A stretch of DNA of 64,000 nt, taken from Escherichia phage AV108. Both the position numbers and the translations under genes were made by a program. Shown here piece after piece: positions 19,944-58,832 of the stretch (position 1 is its first letter; each line of letters begins with the position of its first letter). Below the pieces are notes generated by a model. That model searched no databases. It was given only the letters and a program-made list of their open reading frames with translations, and was not told where the DNA came from. The DNA lies in sequence record OR352938.1. One strand, written 5' to 3'.

Positions 19944-20181
19944 AGTCTACCCACTCAACAAGATCTTTACCTAACTCGAAAGCCCATTCTCGATCCTGCT
20001 TTACGTTTTGTAGGTATGAGCTTTCCGACACTCGACGAAGTGATGTTGTCGTAACAAGAATGATCTCAGGAATGGTCGGATGTTCTTTTCCATATACAAT
20101 AGGACGCGAGTCACTATCAATACCTTGTAAGAAGGTGTATCCTGAATCACTTAGAATCATATACTTTTTCATTTCACACAT
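19843..20181 (-). CDS. hypothetical early protein (~112 aa)
   Basis: ORF track 19843..20184; ATG overlapping the stop of the upstream gene; GAGGAA RBS. Confidence 0.45.
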   Translation of the reverse strand: MCEMKKYMILSDSGYTFLQGIDSDSRPIVYGKEHPTIPEIILVTTTSLRRVSESSYLQNVKQDREWAFELGKDLVEWVDYEDRNQRNHERKIARIAQRRKLDEIKNRILQSM

Positions 20182-20438
20182 CACAGTTTCCTCAACCAGT
20201 TATTCAAGCGAGTAAACCATGATGCTTTTCGTGCTTCTTTTACTTTATGTGCACGTAAACCACTGAAACACCATTCATAATCATCACTGAAACATGATTC
20301 AACAGGAACACCCGCATTTCGTAGTTCTCTGGTCTTTATCATGAATCCTTGACATAAGGGGCGACCTTCAACAATGATAGGAAGTTTAACTTTTTCCATG
20401 AAAGTATACCCAGCACGGTCAATAATTTCAATTTTCAT
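20181..20438 (-). CDS. hypothetical early protein (85 aa)
   Basis: ORF track. Confidence 0.45.
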   Translation of the reverse strand: MKIEIIDRAGYTFMEKVKLPIIVEGRPLCQGFMIKTRELRNAGVPVESCFSDDYEWCFSGLRAHKVKEARKASWFTRLNNWLRKL

Positions 20439-20682
20439 TTACATTATCTCCATAGATCTTTCCAGCAATATCAATTTCACCAGCGCGAACATCTAGGATA
20501 AGATGCGGTAGGTGTATGCAGTTTTCCCACCCTACGCGCTTCATTTCTTCTACGGTAACGTAAGCCCACCCGTTCGCTGTAATAAAGTCTACTTCAACCT
20601 TGAGAGGAAAGCAAGACTTTTCTATGTCTTCGAATCCGACAATATGTTTTGTTGTTGAATATGGAATATATCCGGTGATCAT
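20428..20682 (-). CDS. hypothetical early protein (84 aa)
   Basis: ORF track. Confidence 0.45.
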   Translation of the reverse strand: MITGYIPYSTTKHIVGFEDIEKSCFPLKVEVDFITANGWAYVTVEEMKRVGWENCIHLPHLILDVRAGEIDIAGKIYGDNVNEN

Positions 20683-21123: not shown

Positions 21124-21321
21124 TCACTCTTCTGTTTCATTTCTTTTATATGGTACGATAACAGGATTAATACAGCAAGCACCAATTACGTTATGAGCAC
21201 CACAATTTAAACATTTATAGTCATGGAACTTATTAAGGAATCGACCAAACTCATAACCGACTAGCGCCGCATGTACTTGAGTCTCGATCTCATCCATATC
21301 AGCCAATGTTTTAACCTTCAT
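21124..21321 (-). CDS. small zinc-ribbon protein (~65 aa)
   Basis: ORF track 21124..21360; ATG at 21321 with GAGGATTATACT leader; CLNCGAH...GACCINP Cys cluster. Confidence 0.45.
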   Translation of the reverse strand: MKVKTLADMDEIETQVHAALVGYEFGRFLNKFHDYKCLNCGAHNVIGACCINPVIVPYKRNETEE

Positions 21322-21331
21322 AGTATAATCC

Positions 21332-21622
21332 TCAAATGGTAGTTTTGCGAAGATGGTCATTACATGCTTTTAATGCATCAGTCGCGGTGTCATAGCGAGT
21401 ATTATCATAGCACCAATAACCATCTGTCAACTGATAAATTAATCCATCCTTTTTAGCTTCGATGAAAGATAACTCTTTGAAAGTTTCTACTTTCTTTGCT
21501 GATACTCCACGGTCACGGCGTTTATAGAGTTTAGCTAAAATGCGTTCAGCTTGTTCCTCTTTATCACCTGACAGATCCCAGATGATGTTTCGGATATGCT
21601 TGATTAATTGTTCAGTGGTCAT
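21332..21622 (-). CDS. hypothetical early protein (96 aa)
   Basis: ORF track; first gene after a promoter cassette. Confidence 0.5.
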   Translation of the reverse strand: MTTEQLIKHIRNIIWDLSGDKEEQAERILAKLYKRRDRGVSAKKVETFKELSFIEAKKDGLIYQLTDGYWCYDNTRYDTATDALKACNDHLRKTTI

Positions 21623-21681
21623 CTTTGATTCTCCTTAGTTGGTATGCGTGCATTATAGCATTGTGATTATCTTTGTCAACA
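21623..21681 (-). promoter_or_regulatory. PeSL-like early promoter-leader cassette
   Basis: Minus strand GTTGACA -35, CATAAT-like -10 (tatagcataatgc), leader ...aggagaatcaaagATG. Confidence 0.6.
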
Positions 21682-21689
21682 CCCAAAAA

Positions 21690-21717
21690 CAAAAAAAGGC
21701 TACCCCGAAGGATAGCC
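21690..21717 (-). terminator. rho-independent terminator after the Gly-rich gene
   Basis: Minus strand ggctatccttcggggtagcc hairpin followed by tttttttg. Confidence 0.6.
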
Positions 21718-21725
21718 CATAAAAA

Positions 21726-22502
21726 TTACACGCGAGCACCGTAGATCGTGCCTACTTTATCCCAGCGAGGGGCATTGCCAGTAACAGCCTTACCAGCCGC
21801 TCCGCCATTATACTCTGTACCGTTCCCCTGAGTATTACATCTTCCTCCAGCAGCACCAACGTTACCGCCCGCACCGCCTGTATATGCACTAAGAGACCCC
21901 GAACCAACAGATCCTTTACCCGGAGCGGAAATGGAGCCAGCGGTTGCACCAGAACCCATATTAGAGGAAGACCCGGCAGCACCGAATGGGCGACCACCGC
22001 CACCACCAAATACTAGTCGACCCCTGTTACCTCCACCGCCGCCACCGCCGCCACCAGCGATAGCACCGTTATTTGTAATTCGTAGACGTGTACCGATAGC
22101 GTTATTGATTGCGTTTCCACCAGCAGCGCCAGCAGCGTTACTACCACCATTACCCCCACGTCCGTAGACAGTCACACCGGAGTTAATGATCAATGTTACA
22201 TATTCGTTTGTTAACGAGCTAGGGAAGTCAAGACAAGGAACGCCAGTAGATTGGGAAACAATATCACCCGTGATAGTAATTACTACAGGAGTAGATCCTT
22301 GTGCTTTCATCCAGTTAATAAGAGTGTCTTTATTGTAAGAGTTACTAGCACCAATGCTATAATGAATCTCTTTAGAGCGTCCGACCATTGCCGACATATA
22401 CGCCGGACGACCTAAGCGTACAGCTTGCATTGCGGCGCTCATCCACCGTTGACCAGTCTCGGACACAGCAGATGATCCTACCCATCCAGAAGATATTGCC
22501 AT
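21726..22502 (-). CDS. glycine-rich protein resembling T2/T6-type gp38 long-tail-fibre adhesin (258 aa)
   Basis: N-terminus ...GWVGSSAVSETGQRWMS...; C-terminal ~150 aa dominated by Gly-rich motifs (GRGGNGG, GGGGGGGGGN, FGGGGGRPFGAAG, GGAGGNVGAAGG) separated by short variable segments; ends ...GTIYGARV. Size and motif layout match gp38 adhesins as recalled, not searched. Confidence 0.55.
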   Translation of the reverse strand: MAISSGWVGSSAVSETGQRWMSAAMQAVRLGRPAYMSAMVGRSKEIHYSIGASNSYNKDTLINWMKAQGSTPVVITITGDIVSQSTGVPCLDFPSSLTNEYVTLIINSGVTVYGRGGNGGSNAAGAAGGNAINNAIGTRLRITNNGAIAGGGGGGGGGNRGRLVFGGGGGRPFGAAGSSSNMGSGATAGSISAPGKGSVGSGSLSAYTGGAGGNVGAAGGRCNTQGNGTEYNGGAAGKAVTGNAPRWDKVGTIYGARV

Positions 22503-22556
22503 AAAATTTCCTCACAAGAAAAGCCCCATTTAAGGTGCATTGATTGATAATATTAC

Positions 22557-22779
22557 TTAGATGATCTCTGCTTCACCATTCAGGAAGAAAGACCATGTTT
22601 TGTTAGGATAGCGAAGCGCCCATGATTCAGCAGTTTTAACACCCGCTTCGAACAATTGACGGCTGGTTACTTTAGCCATACCATCGAAGATGGCAACGTT
22701 TTCAATAATCATCGGGTACTTAGCGCCACGCATGAAACCGAAACCAGCGGAAGATTTGATAATTTTAACAGTTGCCATT
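22557..22779 (-). CDS. hypothetical early protein (~74 aa)
   Basis: ORF track 22557..22850; ATG at 22779 directly after aggagaatcaaa leader. Confidence 0.5.
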
Positions 22780-22849
22780 TTGATTCTCCTAGAAAGTGTA
22801 TCTCGTTTCGATGGGTGTATTATGCAATAACACCGGATCGCTGTCAACA
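22780..22849 (-). promoter_or_regulatory. PeSL-like early promoter-leader cassette
   Basis: Minus strand GTTGACA, one GATC in spacer, -10 CATAAT-like, leader cgaaacgagatacac...aggagaatcaaaATG. Confidence 0.6.
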
Positions 22850-22864
22850 CTTTCTAAGAAATTT

Positions 22865-23149
22865 TTAAACTAATCGAATATAACCCAGAATTTCAGCACT
22901 TTTAGCCAGATCTAAAACTTCCCATTCAAGGTCTCCATAGTCATAATTTGCAACCATCAACTGACCATTTTTCATGCAGCAATCATGAGAGAAAATTTGC
23001 CCCGCATAAACTACGATAGTGATAAACTTTCCTGATTCTGGCGGTGTGGAAGACAAAGCGGCCATATGACCATTCAGCTTAGTCACCAGTGATGGAACAA
23101 TAAAATTCGGGCTTACCTTAATACCGTTAAATTCGTTTGTGTCTTTCAT
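22865..23149 (-). CDS. hypothetical early protein (94 aa)
   Basis: ORF track. Confidence 0.45.
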   Translation of the reverse strand: MKDTNEFNGIKVSPNFIVPSLVTKLNGHMAALSSTPPESGKFITIVVYAGQIFSHDCCMKNGQLMVANYDYGDLEWEVLDLAKSAEILGYIRLV

Positions 23150-23496
23150 GCCAGACCTCGCAAAACACTAATAGCATAATCATGCTGGTTATTCATAATA
23201 TCAATTGCATTGTGATAACGAGCTAAACCATCAAGGATAAATTCTTGTTTATCTTGTTTCAGTTTGGTATCACGCGCAGCCATAAGAGCATCAAGAACAG
23301 GTCCAAAGTGATTATCTAATTCATCTTCGGTTGCAATGTTTCCTATTGCCTCGTCGATCCGTGATTCTAATGCTTGCTTTTCGTTGATCACTTGCTGGGT
23401 ATATTCCAACACATCAAGAATATCGCGGGTAACATCGCCATGATAAGGTATTCCCGCATGAAGATGATCAATTAGTCGTTGAATGTCAATGTTCAT
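23146..23496 (-). CDS. hypothetical early protein (116 aa)
   Basis: ORF track; overlapping stop/start with neighbours. Confidence 0.45.
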   Translation of the reverse strand: MNIDIQRLIDHLHAGIPYHGDVTRDILDVLEYTQQVINEKQALESRIDEAIGNIATEDELDNHFGPVLDALMAARDTKLKQDKQEFILDGLARYHNAIDIMNNQHDYAISVLRGLA

Positions 23497-23831: not shown

Positions 23832-24030
23832 TCTTCACGGTCTCCATAATTGTTTTGTAAGCCAGTTTAAGATGATCACCGAAAAACTTTGCGGTGTTAC
23901 CCTTCGGATCGCGGAGCATGGTTTCTACGATCTCATCGGCAGTAACAATTTCTCCTTTCTTTGCTGCATGTTCTACCATATACTTCAAAGTTTCTTCGGA
24001 AGCAAGTGCTGCCGCTACTGGATTAATCAT
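23821..24030 (-). CDS. hypothetical early protein (69 aa)
   Basis: ORF track; first gene after a promoter cassette. Confidence 0.5.
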   Translation of the reverse strand: MINPVAAALASEETLKYMVEHAAKKGEIVTADEIVETMLRDPKGNTAKFFGDHLKLAYKTIMETVKNAK

Positions 24031-24091
24031 TTTTGATTCTCCTTTGTTGTCGATATGTGCATTATGCTATACCCTATTCCGGTTGTCAACA
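24031..24091 (-). promoter_or_regulatory. PeSL-like early promoter-leader cassette
   Basis: Minus strand GTTGACA, tatagcataatgcac -10 region, leader ...aaaggagaatcaaaaATG. Confidence 0.6.
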
Positions 24092-24097
24092 CCTAAA

Positions 24098-24130
24098 AAC
24101 GAAAAAGCCACCCTTTCGGATGGCTTTTTG
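24098..24130 (-). terminator. rho-independent terminator downstream of the Dps-like gene
   Basis: Minus strand agccatccgaaagggtggct hairpin followed by ttttcgttttt. Confidence 0.6.
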
Positions 24131-25080: not shown

Positions 25081-25088
25081 TATTTATA
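25081..25088 (-). promoter_or_regulatory. T4-type late promoter motif TATAAATA
   Basis: Plus-strand tatttata, i.e. TATAAATA on minus, ~35 nt upstream of the 25047 start codon in the tk-downstream intergenic region. Confidence 0.4.
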
Positions 25089-43878: not shown

Positions 43879-45678
43879 ATGCTAATGTTTAATAACTCCG
43901 TTAAATGGTTTACCGGAATTGTAGAAAACAGGGAAGACCCATTAATGCTGGGGCGTGTTCAGGTTAGGATTCATGGTATACATCCCTCGCTATCCGCACA
44001 CGGTGACATTCAAGGTCTCCCAACCGAAGATCTATTATGGATTACGCCAGTACAAGATATTACAAGCGCGGCGATCTCCGGTATAGGTCAAAGCCCTACT
44101 GGTATTGTTGAAGGTTCAATGGTATTTGGTTTGGCTTTAGATGAACGTTATTTAAACTGCGTTATTCTGGGTACTATTGCCGGACAATATACAGAGAAAC
44201 CACTCACTACAGAGGGTTTTTGTGACCCTTCTGGTGCATATCCTCGTTATATTGGTAATGATGTTAATATTCTTGCTCGTGGCGGTATTAACCCAGAAAC
44301 CGGACAAACAACAAAACCTGATAGTGTCTATATTCGAGATGAAAATACTGGAGTTGCAGTAAATCCAGACGACGAGCCATTAGACCAAATTCCGGTTGAT
44401 GATAATCCTGATTTTACAATAGAAAAAATGCTGCGTGGAGATGAGGGGTATCGCGAGAAATGGTATCTTGATTCAGAAGGATATCCGACAATAGGCATCG
44501 GGCATTTGATCATTTATAAGAAAACCAGTGATCTTGGTATTATCAATAATGAACTTTCTAAGCTGGTAGGGCGTGAAGTTACAAACGGAAGACTTACCTC
44601 CGAAGAAGTTAGTAAAGTATTTGCTGACGATATAGAAAAGACTCGTCGTGATATGCGCAAACATCCACGAATTGCACCTGTCTATAATAAATGTAATGCC
44701 TCACGTCGTATGGCATTAGAAAATATGGCGTTTCAAATGGGTGTTGGAGGATTGGGTAAATTTAAGAATAGTCTTGCTGCGATGTTAGCGGAAGAATGGA
44801 AACAAGCCTATGATGGATTACGTCAATCGGTATGGGCTAACCAAACTCCAGGACGCTCCAGCCGTGTTTCTAAAATTATTTTAACTGGTAACTTAGAATC
44901 ATATGGCGTAATTGCTCCAAAGAAAGAGGAATCAATTTCGGATGATCCGCGAGCACGTTTGAGAAATGCCCGTATTGCTGCCTATAAGACGCAGAGAGCA
45001 GAAGAAGACCCAGAAGCACCGTTTACCCCACAAGACACACGAATCATGTTTAAAGAGCCTAAGAGTTCGTATTCTGCAAGGTATCCATATAACCATGTGT
45101 ACGAGTCAGAGAGCGGTCATATTATCGAGATTGATGATACTCCTTCTCATGAGCGATATCATCGTAAACATCCTTCTGGTACATTTGAAGAAACCAGACC
45201 GGATGGAACGAGGGTAGAAAAGATTGAAGGCGATGATTATCTGATCGTTAAACAAGGCCGGAAAGTAAACGTCAAGGGTAATTTGCAAGTTGTTGTTGAA
45301 GGTGACGCGCAAGTTTATTATATGGGTAATGTGATGCAAACCGTTGATGGTAACGTCACTGAATTTATTCGTGGCAATGTTAATCAGACCGTTGAAGGTA
45401 CTGCTAACATGCATGTTGTTGGTGATGTTATCGCACAGCTTGACGCTAATTTGACGGCTAACGTCAAGGGTAATGCTGAATTAATGATCGATGGTAACAC
45501 TACCGAAACAATTAAAGGTAACTATGATTTAACCGTTGAGGGTAATTTTAATATGACAGTCAATGGCACTAAATCAGATCAGGTTAATGGTGACTGGTCC
45601 CGTAATTGTGGTGCAAGCGTTAAAGATATTGCAACTGGTACAGTTAAAATTGATGGTAGCCGTATTGATCTTGGGTGA
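43879..45678 (+). CDS. 5: baseplate hub / cell-puncturing device with lysozyme domain (gp5)
   Basis: 599 aa; N-terminal MLMFNNSVKWFTGIVENREDPLMLGRVQVRIHGIH...; central lysozyme domain GYREKWYLDSEGYPTIGIGHLI; C-terminal VxGNxx beta-helix repeats. Confidence 0.9.
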   Translation: MLMFNNSVKWFTGIVENREDPLMLGRVQVRIHGIHPSLSAHGDIQGLPTEDLLWITPVQDITSAAISGIGQSPTGIVEGSMVFGLALDERYLNCVILGTIAGQYTEKPLTTEGFCDPSGAYPRYIGNDVNILARGGINPETGQTTKPDSVYIRDENTGVAVNPDDEPLDQIPVDDNPDFTIEKMLRGDEGYREKWYLDSEGYPTIGIGHLIIYKKTSDLGIINNELSKLVGREVTNGRLTSEEVSKVFADDIEKTRRDMRKHPRIAPVYNKCNASRRMALENMAFQMGVGGLGKFKNSLAAMLAEEWKQAYDGLRQSVWANQTPGRSSRVSKIILTGNLESYGVIAPKKEESISDDPRARLRNARIAAYKTQRAEEDPEAPFTPQDTRIMFKEPKSSYSARYPYNHVYESESGHIIEIDDTPSHERYHRKHPSGTFEETRPDGTRVEKIEGDDYLIVKQGRKVNVKGNLQVVVEGDAQVYYMGNVMQTVDGNVTEFIRGNVNQTVEGTANMHVVGDVIAQLDANLTANVKGNAELMIDGNTTETIKGNYDLTVEGNFNMTVNGTKSDQVNGDWSRNCGASVKDIATGTVKIDGSRIDLG

Positions 45679-45686
45679 GGTAACTA

Positions 45687-46253
45687 ATGGTTGAAATTCT
45701 TCCGATGAGTTCAAAATTGGAGGATATCAGCGAGCGAGAAATCTTTGAGGTGGTGTTCTCTTATAAAGCAACGCCACCGGATGCAAATACCACATACACG
45801 ATTAAAGAGTTTAAGATCAGCGAGTATCGCCCTAATAAGGGCGTTACCGTTGAAGAAACTAAAATATCTGGTGAGTATCGGGATAGTTTTTCGCTTGGCG
45901 CGGATTCTCTTAAATATATAACGAAAGATAGAATTAAAAAATCTGCCGGAAGTTTTGATGATTTACCAGATCCAACTACCGCAGATCTATATTATTTTAA
46001 CGCTCCTACACGTCTACAGGAGGTTTATACTTATAAAGTAACCCTAACCTATATCCAATCTGTTTCAGAGTCTTCTGGTGGTTCTGATGAAGGAAATAGT
46101 GGTGGTTCCAATAGCCGAGAGGGTGCTGGTGAAACTAATCCGCCTCCGGTAGTAACCGAGCACACAATAGAGAAAGTTTATACTCAAACCGTTTTTGGAA
46201 ATTGGGATGTGTGGGCGCAGCAACTAAGAGATTATGTACATAGGGGTGTTTAA
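45687..46253 (+). CDS. 5.1: gp5.1-like baseplate-associated protein
   Basis: 188 aa between gene 5 and the PAAR gene; synteny. Confidence 0.6.
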
Positions 46254-46546: not shown

Positions 46547-48447
46547 CAAAGCAAAAGATTACACAAATTCCTGATATTTTTAATGCTGCTACGTTTGATG
46601 AAATTAAAAGCGCATTAACAGACTGGATGAGAAACCAGGAAGAATTTAAAGATTTTGATTTTAATGGTGCTGGCATTAACGTATTGATGGACTTGCTCGC
46701 ATATAACACTCTGTATATTCAGCAATTCGCTAACGCCGCGCTATATGAATCTTTTATCAGAACGGCAATTAAGCGTAGTTCAGTTGTTCAAGCCGCGCAA
46801 GATTTAGGATATTTGCCAGCAAGTAAAACTAGTGCATCGACCACAATTATGTTGCACGTATCACATCCGCGAAATCCGGCAAGTATTCGAATCCCACGAG
46901 GAACTAAATTTATTGCAAGTGTGGATCGCCAGACTTCTTACCCGTTTGTGACTACAGAAGACGTTGTGAGCGTTTTAGGTTCAAATGGTTTATATACGCC
47001 TATGCTTAAAGTCGCACAAGGTCGTATTGTTCGTACAGAAATGTTATTTGATCCGAAGAAACAAATTCTGATCCGTGATCCTGATATTGACCGCGCTCAG
47101 GTTAAGTTGTGGGTAGATGGTGCTGAATGGAAAGACTGGACACGAGAAAGCATTGTTAACGCAACTGGCGCTAGTAATATTTTCTATATGCGTGAAACCG
47201 TAGACGGTCATACAGAAATCTTCTTTGGTGAAGGTGAATCAACTTTATCTGCTGCTGGCGGGGCGCTGGAAGCAAATTATATTGGTGGACTTAAGCCGTC
47301 AACTGGTGCTAATATTGTTATCGAATATATTAGCACTAAAGGCGCGGAAGCAAACGGTTCAGTTAATTTTACATATGCGGATACCCTTGCATCTATCTCT
47401 ATTGTTAAAATTATTGAGAATCCGACAAATGATCGTGATTATGTCGGTGCAGATGGTGGTGGTGATCCTGAATCAATCGAACGTATCCGTGAACTTGCTC
47501 CGGTAATGCGTGAATCTCAGCGTCGTTGTGTTACTGCTTCTGACTATGAGGCTTTTGTATCTAGCCGTTTTGGTAGTATTGTTCAGGCGGTACAATGTTT
47601 CACCGACCGAGAAAAACCGGGTTATGCTTTTGTTGCGGTTAAGCCTAAATCTGGCTTGCGCTTGACAACTGTTCAAAAAGAAGATATGAGGGATTATCTG
47701 GCAAAATATAATCTTGCCCCTATCACGCCGAGCATCATTGACCCTAACTATCTGTATATTAAACAGAATATTAAAGTTTCCTATTCAATCAATGACTTGT
47801 CAGAATCAGAGCAGTGGTTGCGAGGTGCGGTTATTGATCAGATAGATGCATATTATACCGACGAAGTGGAAATTTTTAACCAGACCTTTAGTAAGTCTAA
47901 AATGCTTGCTCGTATTGACAAAGCTGACGTGTCTGTGATAGGTTCTAGTGCAGAAATCGAGATGGTGCGAGAGATCGACAACTTCTATAAAGCACCTATG
48001 GCTGGAATCAAGTTTTTAAACCAGTATAAGAGCGGAATCAAGTCTAGTTCGTTCAACTTCGAAAAGGACGACAAGCAATATCCGATCCATTATGTAAGTA
48101 CAGAAATGAACAAAGAATCAGGTTTAGCTAAATTGTTGGTTGGACCTTTCCCTGTTGATTCTACAATCGCTTTACCGCACTATTCCGGCACTGATTTTGA
48201 TAAAGAGGTTATTGACGGGGCGGACCTATACTTTGAGGTTGGAGAAGTTCAGCATTATGACGACCTTATTTCATGGGATCTGGGTAAACTGAATATCAAT
48301 AGCGATCGCTTTACTGGTTCATATATTGAGTTGACAGCTAAACCGATTGCTGATAACATCTTTACTAAAGACGGTTCTTTGATCGTGTTTGAAAACGATC
48401 TCCGTCCTCAGTACACAACTATTAGTCTGGAGGCAATTGCTCAATGA
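46543..48447 (+). CDS. 6: baseplate wedge protein gp6
   Basis: 634 aa (T4 gp6 is 660 aa); synteny 5-6-7-8; overlapping stop/start. Confidence 0.8.
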
Positions 48448-57431: not shown

Positions 57432-58832
57432 ATGGCAAACAATACTATTAACCATGTAAAAGACGATGCTCAATACGTCAAGTTTAACCCTGTAAATGAT
57501 TGGCCTCAAAGCATTACCAACGTACAAGCGGCTTTAGCCGCTATTAATGGCTTTGCCGTAAATGGATTACCGGACGCTACGGAAGATACAGCCGGGATCG
57601 CTGCAATCGCAACTCAGGAAGAAGTAAACGACGGCACTGTAGACAATAAGATCGTGACTCCAAAAACACTAGCTGTTAAAATGTCACGTCCAGATGCTAC
57701 AAAAGAAGTAAAAGGCATTACCCGATTTGCCACGATGGAAGAATCGCTGCAAGAGAGCAACGAGAACATGGCAATCGGTCCAGACACACTAAACCATTAC
57801 TTCACCACTAAAAAGGCGTCAGAGAGCGTTCAGGGGACTATTAAGATATGTTCTCTTGAGGCGGCAAAGATTGGCAGCGATGACACAATGGCAGTAACAC
57901 CGAAAAAGATGCACACTGCCATTGCACAGATTGTGCCGGGATTAATTCCAGATCAAAACACAGCAACCGAAAGCGCACAGGGTTTAGTTCAGTTAGCAAC
58001 TAATGCGCAGGTTTTACAAGGCCAGATTCGAGAAGGTTTTGCAATTAGCCCTTATGCATTTGCAAATGCTCGCGCCAATGAGAATCAGGCGGGTACTGTT
58101 AAGATCGCCAGCCAGTCACAGATGAATGCTGGTTCAGATGATACTGTAGTTGTTTCTGCTAAGAAGTTTGCAAGCACTAAGGCAACAACGTCTCAATACG
58201 GCATTGTTAAACTACGAGACACCGTAGGAAGTGAGGCTAACGCTGCACTATCAGCAAATGCTAAGGTTCTTCCGAGCACTGGCGGTACGGTAAGCGGAAA
58301 CGTCTATAAAGGTTCTAACTCAGACGGCAACCAGTTTGTTACTAAAAATGAATTAGCGAATCACGCAATGCCAATTGGTGGTATTATCCTTTCTGGATTC
58401 AATGCCGATCGAGGTGACTTTCTGATCTGTAATGGTCGTTCACTGAATAAAAATCAATATCCGCAATTATTTTCTGCGATTGGTTATACCTTTGGTGGTT
58501 CAGGTGACAATTTTAATCTTCCTGATATGCGCGGTTTAGTTGCTCGTGGTTGCGATCATGGAAGAAACCTTGATCCAGGTCGTCGATTTGGTTCTTATCA
58601 AGAAGACGCAATGCAGAGAATTACTGGTAAATTCCCTGTAGCTGACCGCTGGCGCGGTTGGTATGGTGGAGCATTTACTGCACAGCGCGGTCAATGGAGC
58701 ACGAACTATAAAAACGGTGGTGGTGATGATTGGGGTACTACTGTTAACTTTGACTCAGGAAGATCCGTAAGAACGGCTAACGAGACTCGCGTCAAGAGTC
58801 TGGCATTAAACTATATCATAAGGGTGCGCTAA
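57432..58832 (+). CDS. 12: short tail fibre protein gp12
   Basis: 466 aa; repetitive central region (GxxKIAS..AGSDDTxxVTPKK repeats); C-terminal phage-tail-collar-like domain (CNGRSLNKNQYPQLFSAIGYTFGGSGDNFNLPDMRGLVARG). Confidence 0.8.
   Translation: MANNTINHVKDDAQYVKFNPVNDWPQSITNVQAALAAINGFAVNGLPDATEDTAGIAAIATQEEVNDGTVDNKIVTPKTLAVKMSRPDATKEVKGITRFATMEESLQESNENMAIGPDTLNHYFTTKKASESVQGTIKICSLEAAKIGSDDTMAVTPKKMHTAIAQIVPGLIPDQNTATESAQGLVQLATNAQVLQGQIREGFAISPYAFANARANENQAGTVKIASQSQMNAGSDDTVVVSAKKFASTKATTSQYGIVKLRDTVGSEANAALSANAKVLPSTGGTVSGNVYKGSNSDGNQFVTKNELANHAMPIGGIILSGFNADRGDFLICNGRSLNKNQYPQLFSAIGYTFGGSGDNFNLPDMRGLVARGCDHGRNLDPGRRFGSYQEDAMQRITGKFPVADRWRGWYGGAFTAQRGQWSTNYKNGGGDDWGTTVNFDSGRSVRTANETRVKSLALNYIIRVR

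Follow-up and report, generated by a model that had tools for sequence, protein, structure and literature searches.

The gp38 adhesin that predominates is small and has no relation to the adhesin version of T4, in which the function is encoded differently (Trojet 2011, PMC3157838). In T2/T6-type phages, gene 38 has its canonical place in the late tail-fibre operon. In the RB49 group, a displaced gene 38 is the documented state (Trojet 2011, PMC3157838), and the displacement was reported by Desplats 2002 and restated in Trojet 2011. RB49 gp38 has been treated as the long tail fibre's receptor-binding protein, and host-range mutants of RB49 carried their sole changes in this protein, either E230K or E230K together with Y231S (Golomidova 2022, PMC9569957). 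The same protein was modelled on OmpA in a 2026 preprint, and published work gives OmpA and some O antigens as the receptors of RB49-like phages.

We analysed a window of 64,000 nucleotides from Escherichia phage AV108 (OR352938.1), in which gene 38 differs from that of the T2/T6-type phages in position, flanks and regulatory signals. An earlier note, made from the sequence of the window, had described the gene as a gp38-like adhesin relocated to the early region, perhaps with a decoy or moonlighting function. With high confidence, we instead regard it as gene 38 of a Krischvirus, which encodes the sole gp38 of the phage, an ordinary fibre-capping adhesin that is most likely expressed from a short sigma-70 unit in which its gene stands second. 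The gp38 family of the protein, the displaced position of its gene and its host-range role in RB49-like phages are already known from publications or annotation.

Identity and position of gene 38

The open reading frame for a 258-aa protein was present as the earlier note had described it, at 21726-22502 on the minus strand, with an ATG start and with the stop codon included in these coordinates. Its assignment to the T2/T6/S16 type of gp38 adhesin was borne out over the full length of the protein. The Pfam family GP38 (PF05268) matched with E=4.4e-72 and 242.9 bits (cut-off 25) across profile positions 1-218 of 218, and Gp38_N (PF21721) matched residues 1-40 with E=3.9e-18 and 65.6 bits (cut-off 25). 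PHROG 2056, annotated as "tail fiber protein; host specificity", was matched with E=2.3e-98. The comparison with known gp38 adhesins that the earlier note had proposed found S16 gp38 (PDB 6F45, chain 6f45_D), with residues 1-256 aligning to residues 1-247 at E=1.4e-49, where a lack of gp38 similarity would have counted against the assignment. Judged by these matches, the likeness to gp38 is far above chance, and the protein is predicted by homology to share the two domains of the structurally solved adhesin, one N-terminal and used for attachment, the other C-terminal, polyglycine-rich and used for receptor binding.

The gp38 of S16 shares its N-terminal attachment region and its glycine-rich motifs with the window protein, GGGGGRP(F/L)GA among them, whereas the hypervariable segments of the two proteins differ. 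The gp38 of the T2/T6-type phage Pu-Krd-SF3 was 76% identical overall to the window protein and had the same glycine-rich and hypervariable architecture. Within the genus, protein identity reached 98% with Phi1 and 99.2% with ELT3, and gene 38 was annotated at the same locus in Phi1, RB49, JSE and others. Compared with RB49, Phi1, JSE and ELT3, the window has the same gene, locus, neighbours, promoters and terminator, and differs only by allelic changes and by a C-to-A change at 22536 that was unseen in the eight other genomes checked.

The window phage is a Krischvirus, an RB49-like phage of the T4 type, and the window showed 97-98% identity to RB49, Phi1, JSE and KFS-EC. The 3.5 kb around gene 38 were 94-98% identical to RB49, Phi1, JSE, KFS-EC, ECD7, GEC-3S and other Krischvirus genomes, and 43 phage records spanned at least 80% of this region. 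A scan of IMG/VR for the context of gene 38 returned two loci only, one Krischvirus and one T-even. In RB49, Phi1, JSE, KFS-EC and the window, the gene lies between dam/nrdC and rI/tk. Its neighbours are all on the minus strand and are homologous to the T4 early-region genes 49, nrdC, dam, rI, tk, vs and regB; in Phi1, RB49 and others, the surrounding genes include 49, nrdC and dam towards one end and rI.-1, rI, tk, vs and regB towards the opposite end.

The window contained one copy of gp38 and no homologue of gp36 or gp37, and the distance to the fibre genes was taken from Phi1. In that phage, gene 38 lies at 44989-45765, genes 34-35-36-37 at 144965-154585 and gene 37 at 151643-154585, so that about 106 kb separate genes 38 and 37 on the linear map, and about 55 kb if the circular map is followed in the opposite direction. 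Thus, the earlier note was right that the gene sits on the early strand, far from genes 34-37. On the Phi1 map, gene 38 is absent from its canonical place directly 3' of gene 37, a location that is typical but does not define the protein family. Pu-Krd-SF3, by contrast, has the canonical order 36-37-38-t with gene 38 directly after gene 37. In S16, gene 38 also follows gene 37 directly.

The second gene 38 downstream of gene 37 that the earlier note had considered was not found in Phi1, in which gene 37 is followed by the 79-aa ORF252 and then by the holin gene t. ORF252 had neither gp38 similarity nor a Pfam match, which ruled it out as a remnant of gene 38 in the gene-38 slot. This ORF (L003:29628-29867), between gene 37 and t, encodes a protein that is hydrophobic at its N-terminus and has an acidic tail. 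In the window, a weak match to Phi1 gp34 (26-33% identity) at 57549-58313 on the plus strand belonged to the gp12/wac part of the late block; these genes, which encode the short tail fibre and fibritin, are at a distance of about 35 kb from gene 38. The displacement of gene 38 is real but genus-typical, and the novelty that the earlier note had implied for it is preempted by Desplats 2002 and Trojet 2011.

Modules of gp38 and exchange with T-even phages

Codons 1-45 of gene 38 (22368-22502, minus strand) make up the N-terminal gp37-attachment module, Gp38_N, and codons 113-258 (21729-22166, minus strand) the glycine-rich receptor-binding domain. Glycine accounted for 34% of residues 113-258 versus 9% of residues 1-112. 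The C-terminal part of the protein held eight Gly/Ala-rich runs with short segments between them, in agreement with the glycine-rich half and short separating segments of the earlier description. When gp38 proteins were aligned, invariant Gly-rich columns alternated with variable blocks in this half. E230 and Y231, the residues changed in the RB49 host-range mutants, were both wild type in the window protein.

A comparison of six Krischvirus genomes showed 93-100% nucleotide identity in the flanks and in the 5' half of gene 38. Identity fell to 49-75% in the 3' half (about 22180-21760) and recovered at the terminator. At the level of these alignments, the glycine-rich half appears as a sharply bounded hotspot of diversity in the receptor-binding domain. 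Over the N-terminal 45 residues, identity was 100% among the six Krischvirus alleles and 91% for a pair of T-even phages, but only 57-64% across the lineages, with 64% for Krischvirus versus the T-even phage Pu-Krd-SF3.

The remainder of the protein behaved differently across lineages. Residues 46-258 of the gp38 of Krischvirus 011D4 were 93-96% identical to those of Pu-Krd-SF3, and the range for the 011D4 and GEC-3S alleles together was 91-96%. In this part, some Krischvirus alleles were closer to T-even gp38 than to fellow Krischvirus alleles. Stretches of 60 nt were 100% identical between gene 38 of the window and that of Pu-Krd-SF3 (window 21729-22368 versus L006:4480-5265; the 011D4 locus was L007). 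Gene 38 was the sole DNA common to the Krischvirus and T-even loci, as a mosaic with stretches of 92-100% identity, whereas the adjoining proteins of Krischvirus and Pu-Krd-SF3 were far more diverged (48% identity for t, 34-44% in patches for gp37). These comparisons indicate an attachment module that stays with its own gp37 and a receptor-binding module that is still swapped with canonical adhesins, even though the gene has another position. Such modularity is the behaviour previously described for gp38. An invariant N-terminus joined to a hypervariable, exchanged C-terminal half argues against a decoy or a degenerate copy.

The partner protein was examined in Phi1, a 97%-identical relative, gene 37 being outside the window. 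Residues 872-931 of the 980 residues of Phi1 gp37 matched Peptidase_S74, an intramolecular-chaperone domain (E=1.2e-11). By this match, the C-terminus of Phi1 gp37 is predicted to be the self-cleaving intramolecular chaperone typical of gp38-capped fibres, not a receptor-binding needle of the T4 type. In the proposed mechanism, the gp37 C-terminal chaperone domain would cleave itself off, after which the N-terminal module of gp38 (about residues 1-45, extending to about residue 112) would dock on the trimeric gp37 tip. One gp38 monomer would cap each long tail fibre, and its glycine-rich C-terminal domain would expose hypervariable loops for binding to the receptor of the host.

Predicted transcription unit and time of expression

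All promoters and terminators of the gene 38 unit had been predicted earlier for RB49 (Nolan 2006). Downstream of the stop codon of the preceding ORF (22865, minus strand), our scan found a sigma-70-type early promoter, TTGACA-17-CATAAT, at 22819-22847 on the minus strand. It was conserved in six genomes and corresponds to RB49 Pe:46502 (Nolan 2006). Folding placed no stem-loop in front of this promoter, and the upstream sequence was unstructured. The first cistron, at 22557-22778 on the minus strand, is a homologue of Phi1 ORF080 and matched phrog_7345 (E=3.5e-33); a Pfam search with its product gave no match. The earlier note had counted 74 aa for this ORF, which encodes 73 aa in 74 codons including the stop. 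A spacer of 54 nt separates it from gene 38, which is preceded by a Shine-Dalgarno GAGG (22510-22513, minus strand) that lies 7 nt before the ATG and was conserved in nine genomes.

The spacer contains a stem-loop followed by a TTTTCTT tract (22516-22538, minus strand), identified in the alignment. It was predicted in RB49 as the 5-bp terminator "38<--RB49ORF080c" (Nolan 2006), and the region is annotated as a terminator in GEC-3S. A stem of GCCCC-loop-GGGGC was found in eight of nine Krischvirus genomes (RB49, Phi1, ELT3, KFS-EC, GEC-3S, ECD7, 011D4 and W115), whereas the window has GCACC, with A at 22536. The predicted folding energy was -13 kcal/mol in the relatives versus -6.5 kcal/mol in the window; thus, the single C-to-A change approximately halves the predicted stability of the stem. 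The change could increase the read-through that reaches gene 38 or, alternatively, reflect an error of sequencing. In the eight relatives with the intact stem, the stem-loop, which is 20 nt upstream of the ATG, might terminate part of the early transcript.

Gene 38 is followed by a strong intrinsic terminator at 21697-21718 on the minus strand, with a 9-bp stem, a TTCG loop and a T-run. It folded with a dG of -14.7 kcal/mol and a z-score of -4.15, and none of 200 shuffled sequences folded equally well. The terminator of its own that the earlier note had assigned to gene 38 is therefore present, and it has a counterpart in the 9-bp RB49 terminator "ORF078c<--38" (Nolan 2006). Beyond it, at 21652-21679 on the minus strand, lies a conserved and perfect sigma-70 promoter for the next unit, TTGACA-16-TGnTATAAT (12 of 12 matches, with TG), the counterpart of RB49 Pe:45336 (Nolan 2006). 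The small-ORF block that precedes gene 38 is bounded on its upstream side by an element at 24061-24129 on the minus strand, composed of a 12-bp terminator (24129-24102) and a promoter (24089-24061), with RB49 Pe:47746 and the terminator 47750-47767 as counterparts (Nolan 2006).

Transcription would run from the promoter at 22847-22819 through the 73-aa ORF, across the weak stem-loop and through gene 38 to the terminator at 21718-21697. The earlier note had proposed co-transcription of gene 38 with the small ORF from a PeSL-type early promoter. The unit itself broadly stood, in agreement with Nolan 2006, and the PeSL type did not, as no stem-loop lies upstream of the promoter.

First cistrons on the minus strand shared a near-identical leader, AGGAGAATCAAA(A/G)ATG, at 22776-22790, 21622-21641 and 24028-24042; the leader AGGAGAATCAAA at the first of these sites precedes the 73-aa ORF. 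From this repetition, the repeated cassette seems to include a ribosome-binding site besides the promoter and stem-loop. The shared leader contains GGAG, which is the RegB cleavage motif known from T4. The 73-aa ORF has a minus-strand paralogue less than 2.4 kb away, an 85-aa ORF at 20181-20438 that also matched phrog_7345 (E=6.3e-39). A role of the 73-aa protein as a gp38-specific partner was rejected, as it belongs to a paralogous small-protein family with this second copy, and by sequence the 73-aa ORF looks like an ordinary ORF of the hyperplastic region.

PeSL-type elements have been shown experimentally to recombine in RB49/phi1 (Arbiol 2010, PMC2839356). The features that define them, in an intergenic part of a hyperplastic region, are a stable GC-rich stem-loop, then a stretch rich in AT or T, then a sigma-70 promoter close to the consensus. 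These were found together at 21718-21652 and at 24129-24061 and, for want of a stem-loop, not at the 22847-22819 promoter. The element at 21718-21652, formed by the gene 38 terminator and the promoter of the next unit, resembles the PeSLs of Arbiol 2010 in its GC-rich stem-loop, T-rich spacer and consensus sigma-70 promoter, and in its location in an indel-polymorphic hyperplastic region. In contrast to those PeSLs, no mini-circle or recombination junction is documented with gene 38, and Arbiol 2010 does not mention the gene. Among the insertion, deletion and replacement polymorphisms of this region, ECD7 and 011D4 had an extra small ORF of about 180 nt at the junction near 21136, and a segment at about 20400-20480 was common to the window and ECD7 and different in Phi1, GEC-3S, 011D4 and W115. 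All Krischvirus genomes examined had gene 38 at this site, and no homology to the donor flanks of the canonical T-even locus was found around it. Because the gene sits among PeSL-type stem-loop/promoter elements and near indels, its insertion as a cassette is a plausible conjecture.

We infer the promoter used for gene 38 and the timing of its expression from these signals. The arrangement best supported by the sequence would be a joint transcript of the 73-aa ORF and gene 38 that starts at the sigma-70 promoter and may be attenuated at the small stem-loop. The same adhesin could alternatively be expressed late, by read-through from a distant late promoter or from an unrecognised non-consensus late promoter, in which case the early-strand location would be irrelevant to timing. 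We consider this unlikely. In its favour, gp37, the partner in the virion, is expressed late, early transcription in most relatives could be restricted by the small stem-loop just ahead of gene 38, and the canonical T4-type late promoter motif TATAAATA occurs on the same strand, at 25081-25088 (minus strand), 2.6 kb upstream of gene 38. This motif, which corresponds to RB49 Pl:48756, was the only exact occurrence on the gene 38 strand. However, the 12-bp terminator at 24129-24102 separates it from gene 38, and a further stem-loop lies between them. Nor was TATAAATA found closer with up to one mismatch on the minus strand at 22503-23189, the stretch of about 690 nt directly upstream of gene 38, and the published list of RB49 late promoters has none near gene 38 (Nolan 2006). 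The missing nearby late promoter is unusual for a virion protein.

In RB49, no MotA orthologue and no middle-promoter consensus were found, and AsiA orthologues are listed only in other phages (Nolan 2006). Neither asiA nor motA was annotated in the Phi1 stretches examined, including the stretch beside t, where Pu-Krd-SF3 has both. On these grounds, the sigma-70 promoters of RB49-like phages could plausibly be active later than those of T4. The Shine-Dalgarno sequence was also considered as a guide to timing. A proposal that gene 38 escapes RegB through its GAGG, where its neighbours have AGGAGA, was rejected, as GAGG-only leaders were common in both temporal classes. Among 166 Phi1 genes, GGAG was present in 37% of early versus 17% of late leaders (p=0.03), and GAGG-only leaders made up 35% versus 22%; the type of Shine-Dalgarno sequence is thus not diagnostic of the temporal class of gene 38. 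Literature searches found no report of transcript timing or of a virion proteome for Krischvirus.

In a more far-reaching version of early expression, the adhesin would be made from the sigma-70 early promoter only, through a tunable stem-loop attenuator, and the early pool would perhaps block OmpA or O-antigen receptors. We give this version very little credence. If true, the tip protein would accumulate before the fibre exists and could reduce superinfection or the number of progeny lost to cell debris, and the stem-loop mutation of the window would be an expression-level variant.

Function and annotation of gp38

The earlier note had suggested a decoy or moonlighting function, by which an early-region gp38 would mask receptors or exclude superinfecting phages, instead of or besides capping fibres. 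That the gene belongs to a transcription unit which looks early and has no late promoter speaks for such a function, and an extra role is compatible with the sequence. However, this is the only gp38 in the genome, as seen in the window and in Phi1, and host-range mutations of RB49 map to it (PMC9569957). Within the genus, the N-terminus that attaches to the fibre does not vary, the half that binds the receptor is hypervariable and exchanged with canonical adhesins, and the partner gp37, with its S74 domain, is of the gp38-capped type. Collectively, these observations make a decoy or moonlighting role highly improbable, and the suggestion was abandoned in favour of an ordinary fibre-capping adhesin.

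The protein of the window shares its gene number and a link to the distal long tail fibre with T4 gp38, a tail-fibre assembly chaperone, whereas it is itself of the adhesin type. In the GenBank records of RB49 (L009, 1525-2301), JSE and GEC-3S, gene 38 bears the name of the T4 chaperone, "distal long tail fiber assembly catalyst". That the protein is a non-virion chaperone of this kind, as the name would have it, can be dismissed as almost certainly wrong, because the homology results show the adhesin type, with a full-length match to the adhesin family and to the solved S16 adhesin, the RB49 record itself carries the note "similar to T2 and RB69 gp38 adhesin", the predominant gp38 adhesin is the small protein described above (Trojet 2011, PMC3157838), and gp37 has its own chaperone domain.

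Other records differ in further ways. The KFS-EC GenBank entry calls gene 38 hypothetical (L011, 1325-2101), and the ELT3 record begins it at an internal codon, giving 705 nt instead of 777 (L010, 673-1377). The result has little weight as a discovery; its value is practical, for annotation and engineering. In Krischvirus genomes, a search for the receptor-binding protein has to turn to the hyperplastic region of the early strand and not to the stretch that follows gene 37.
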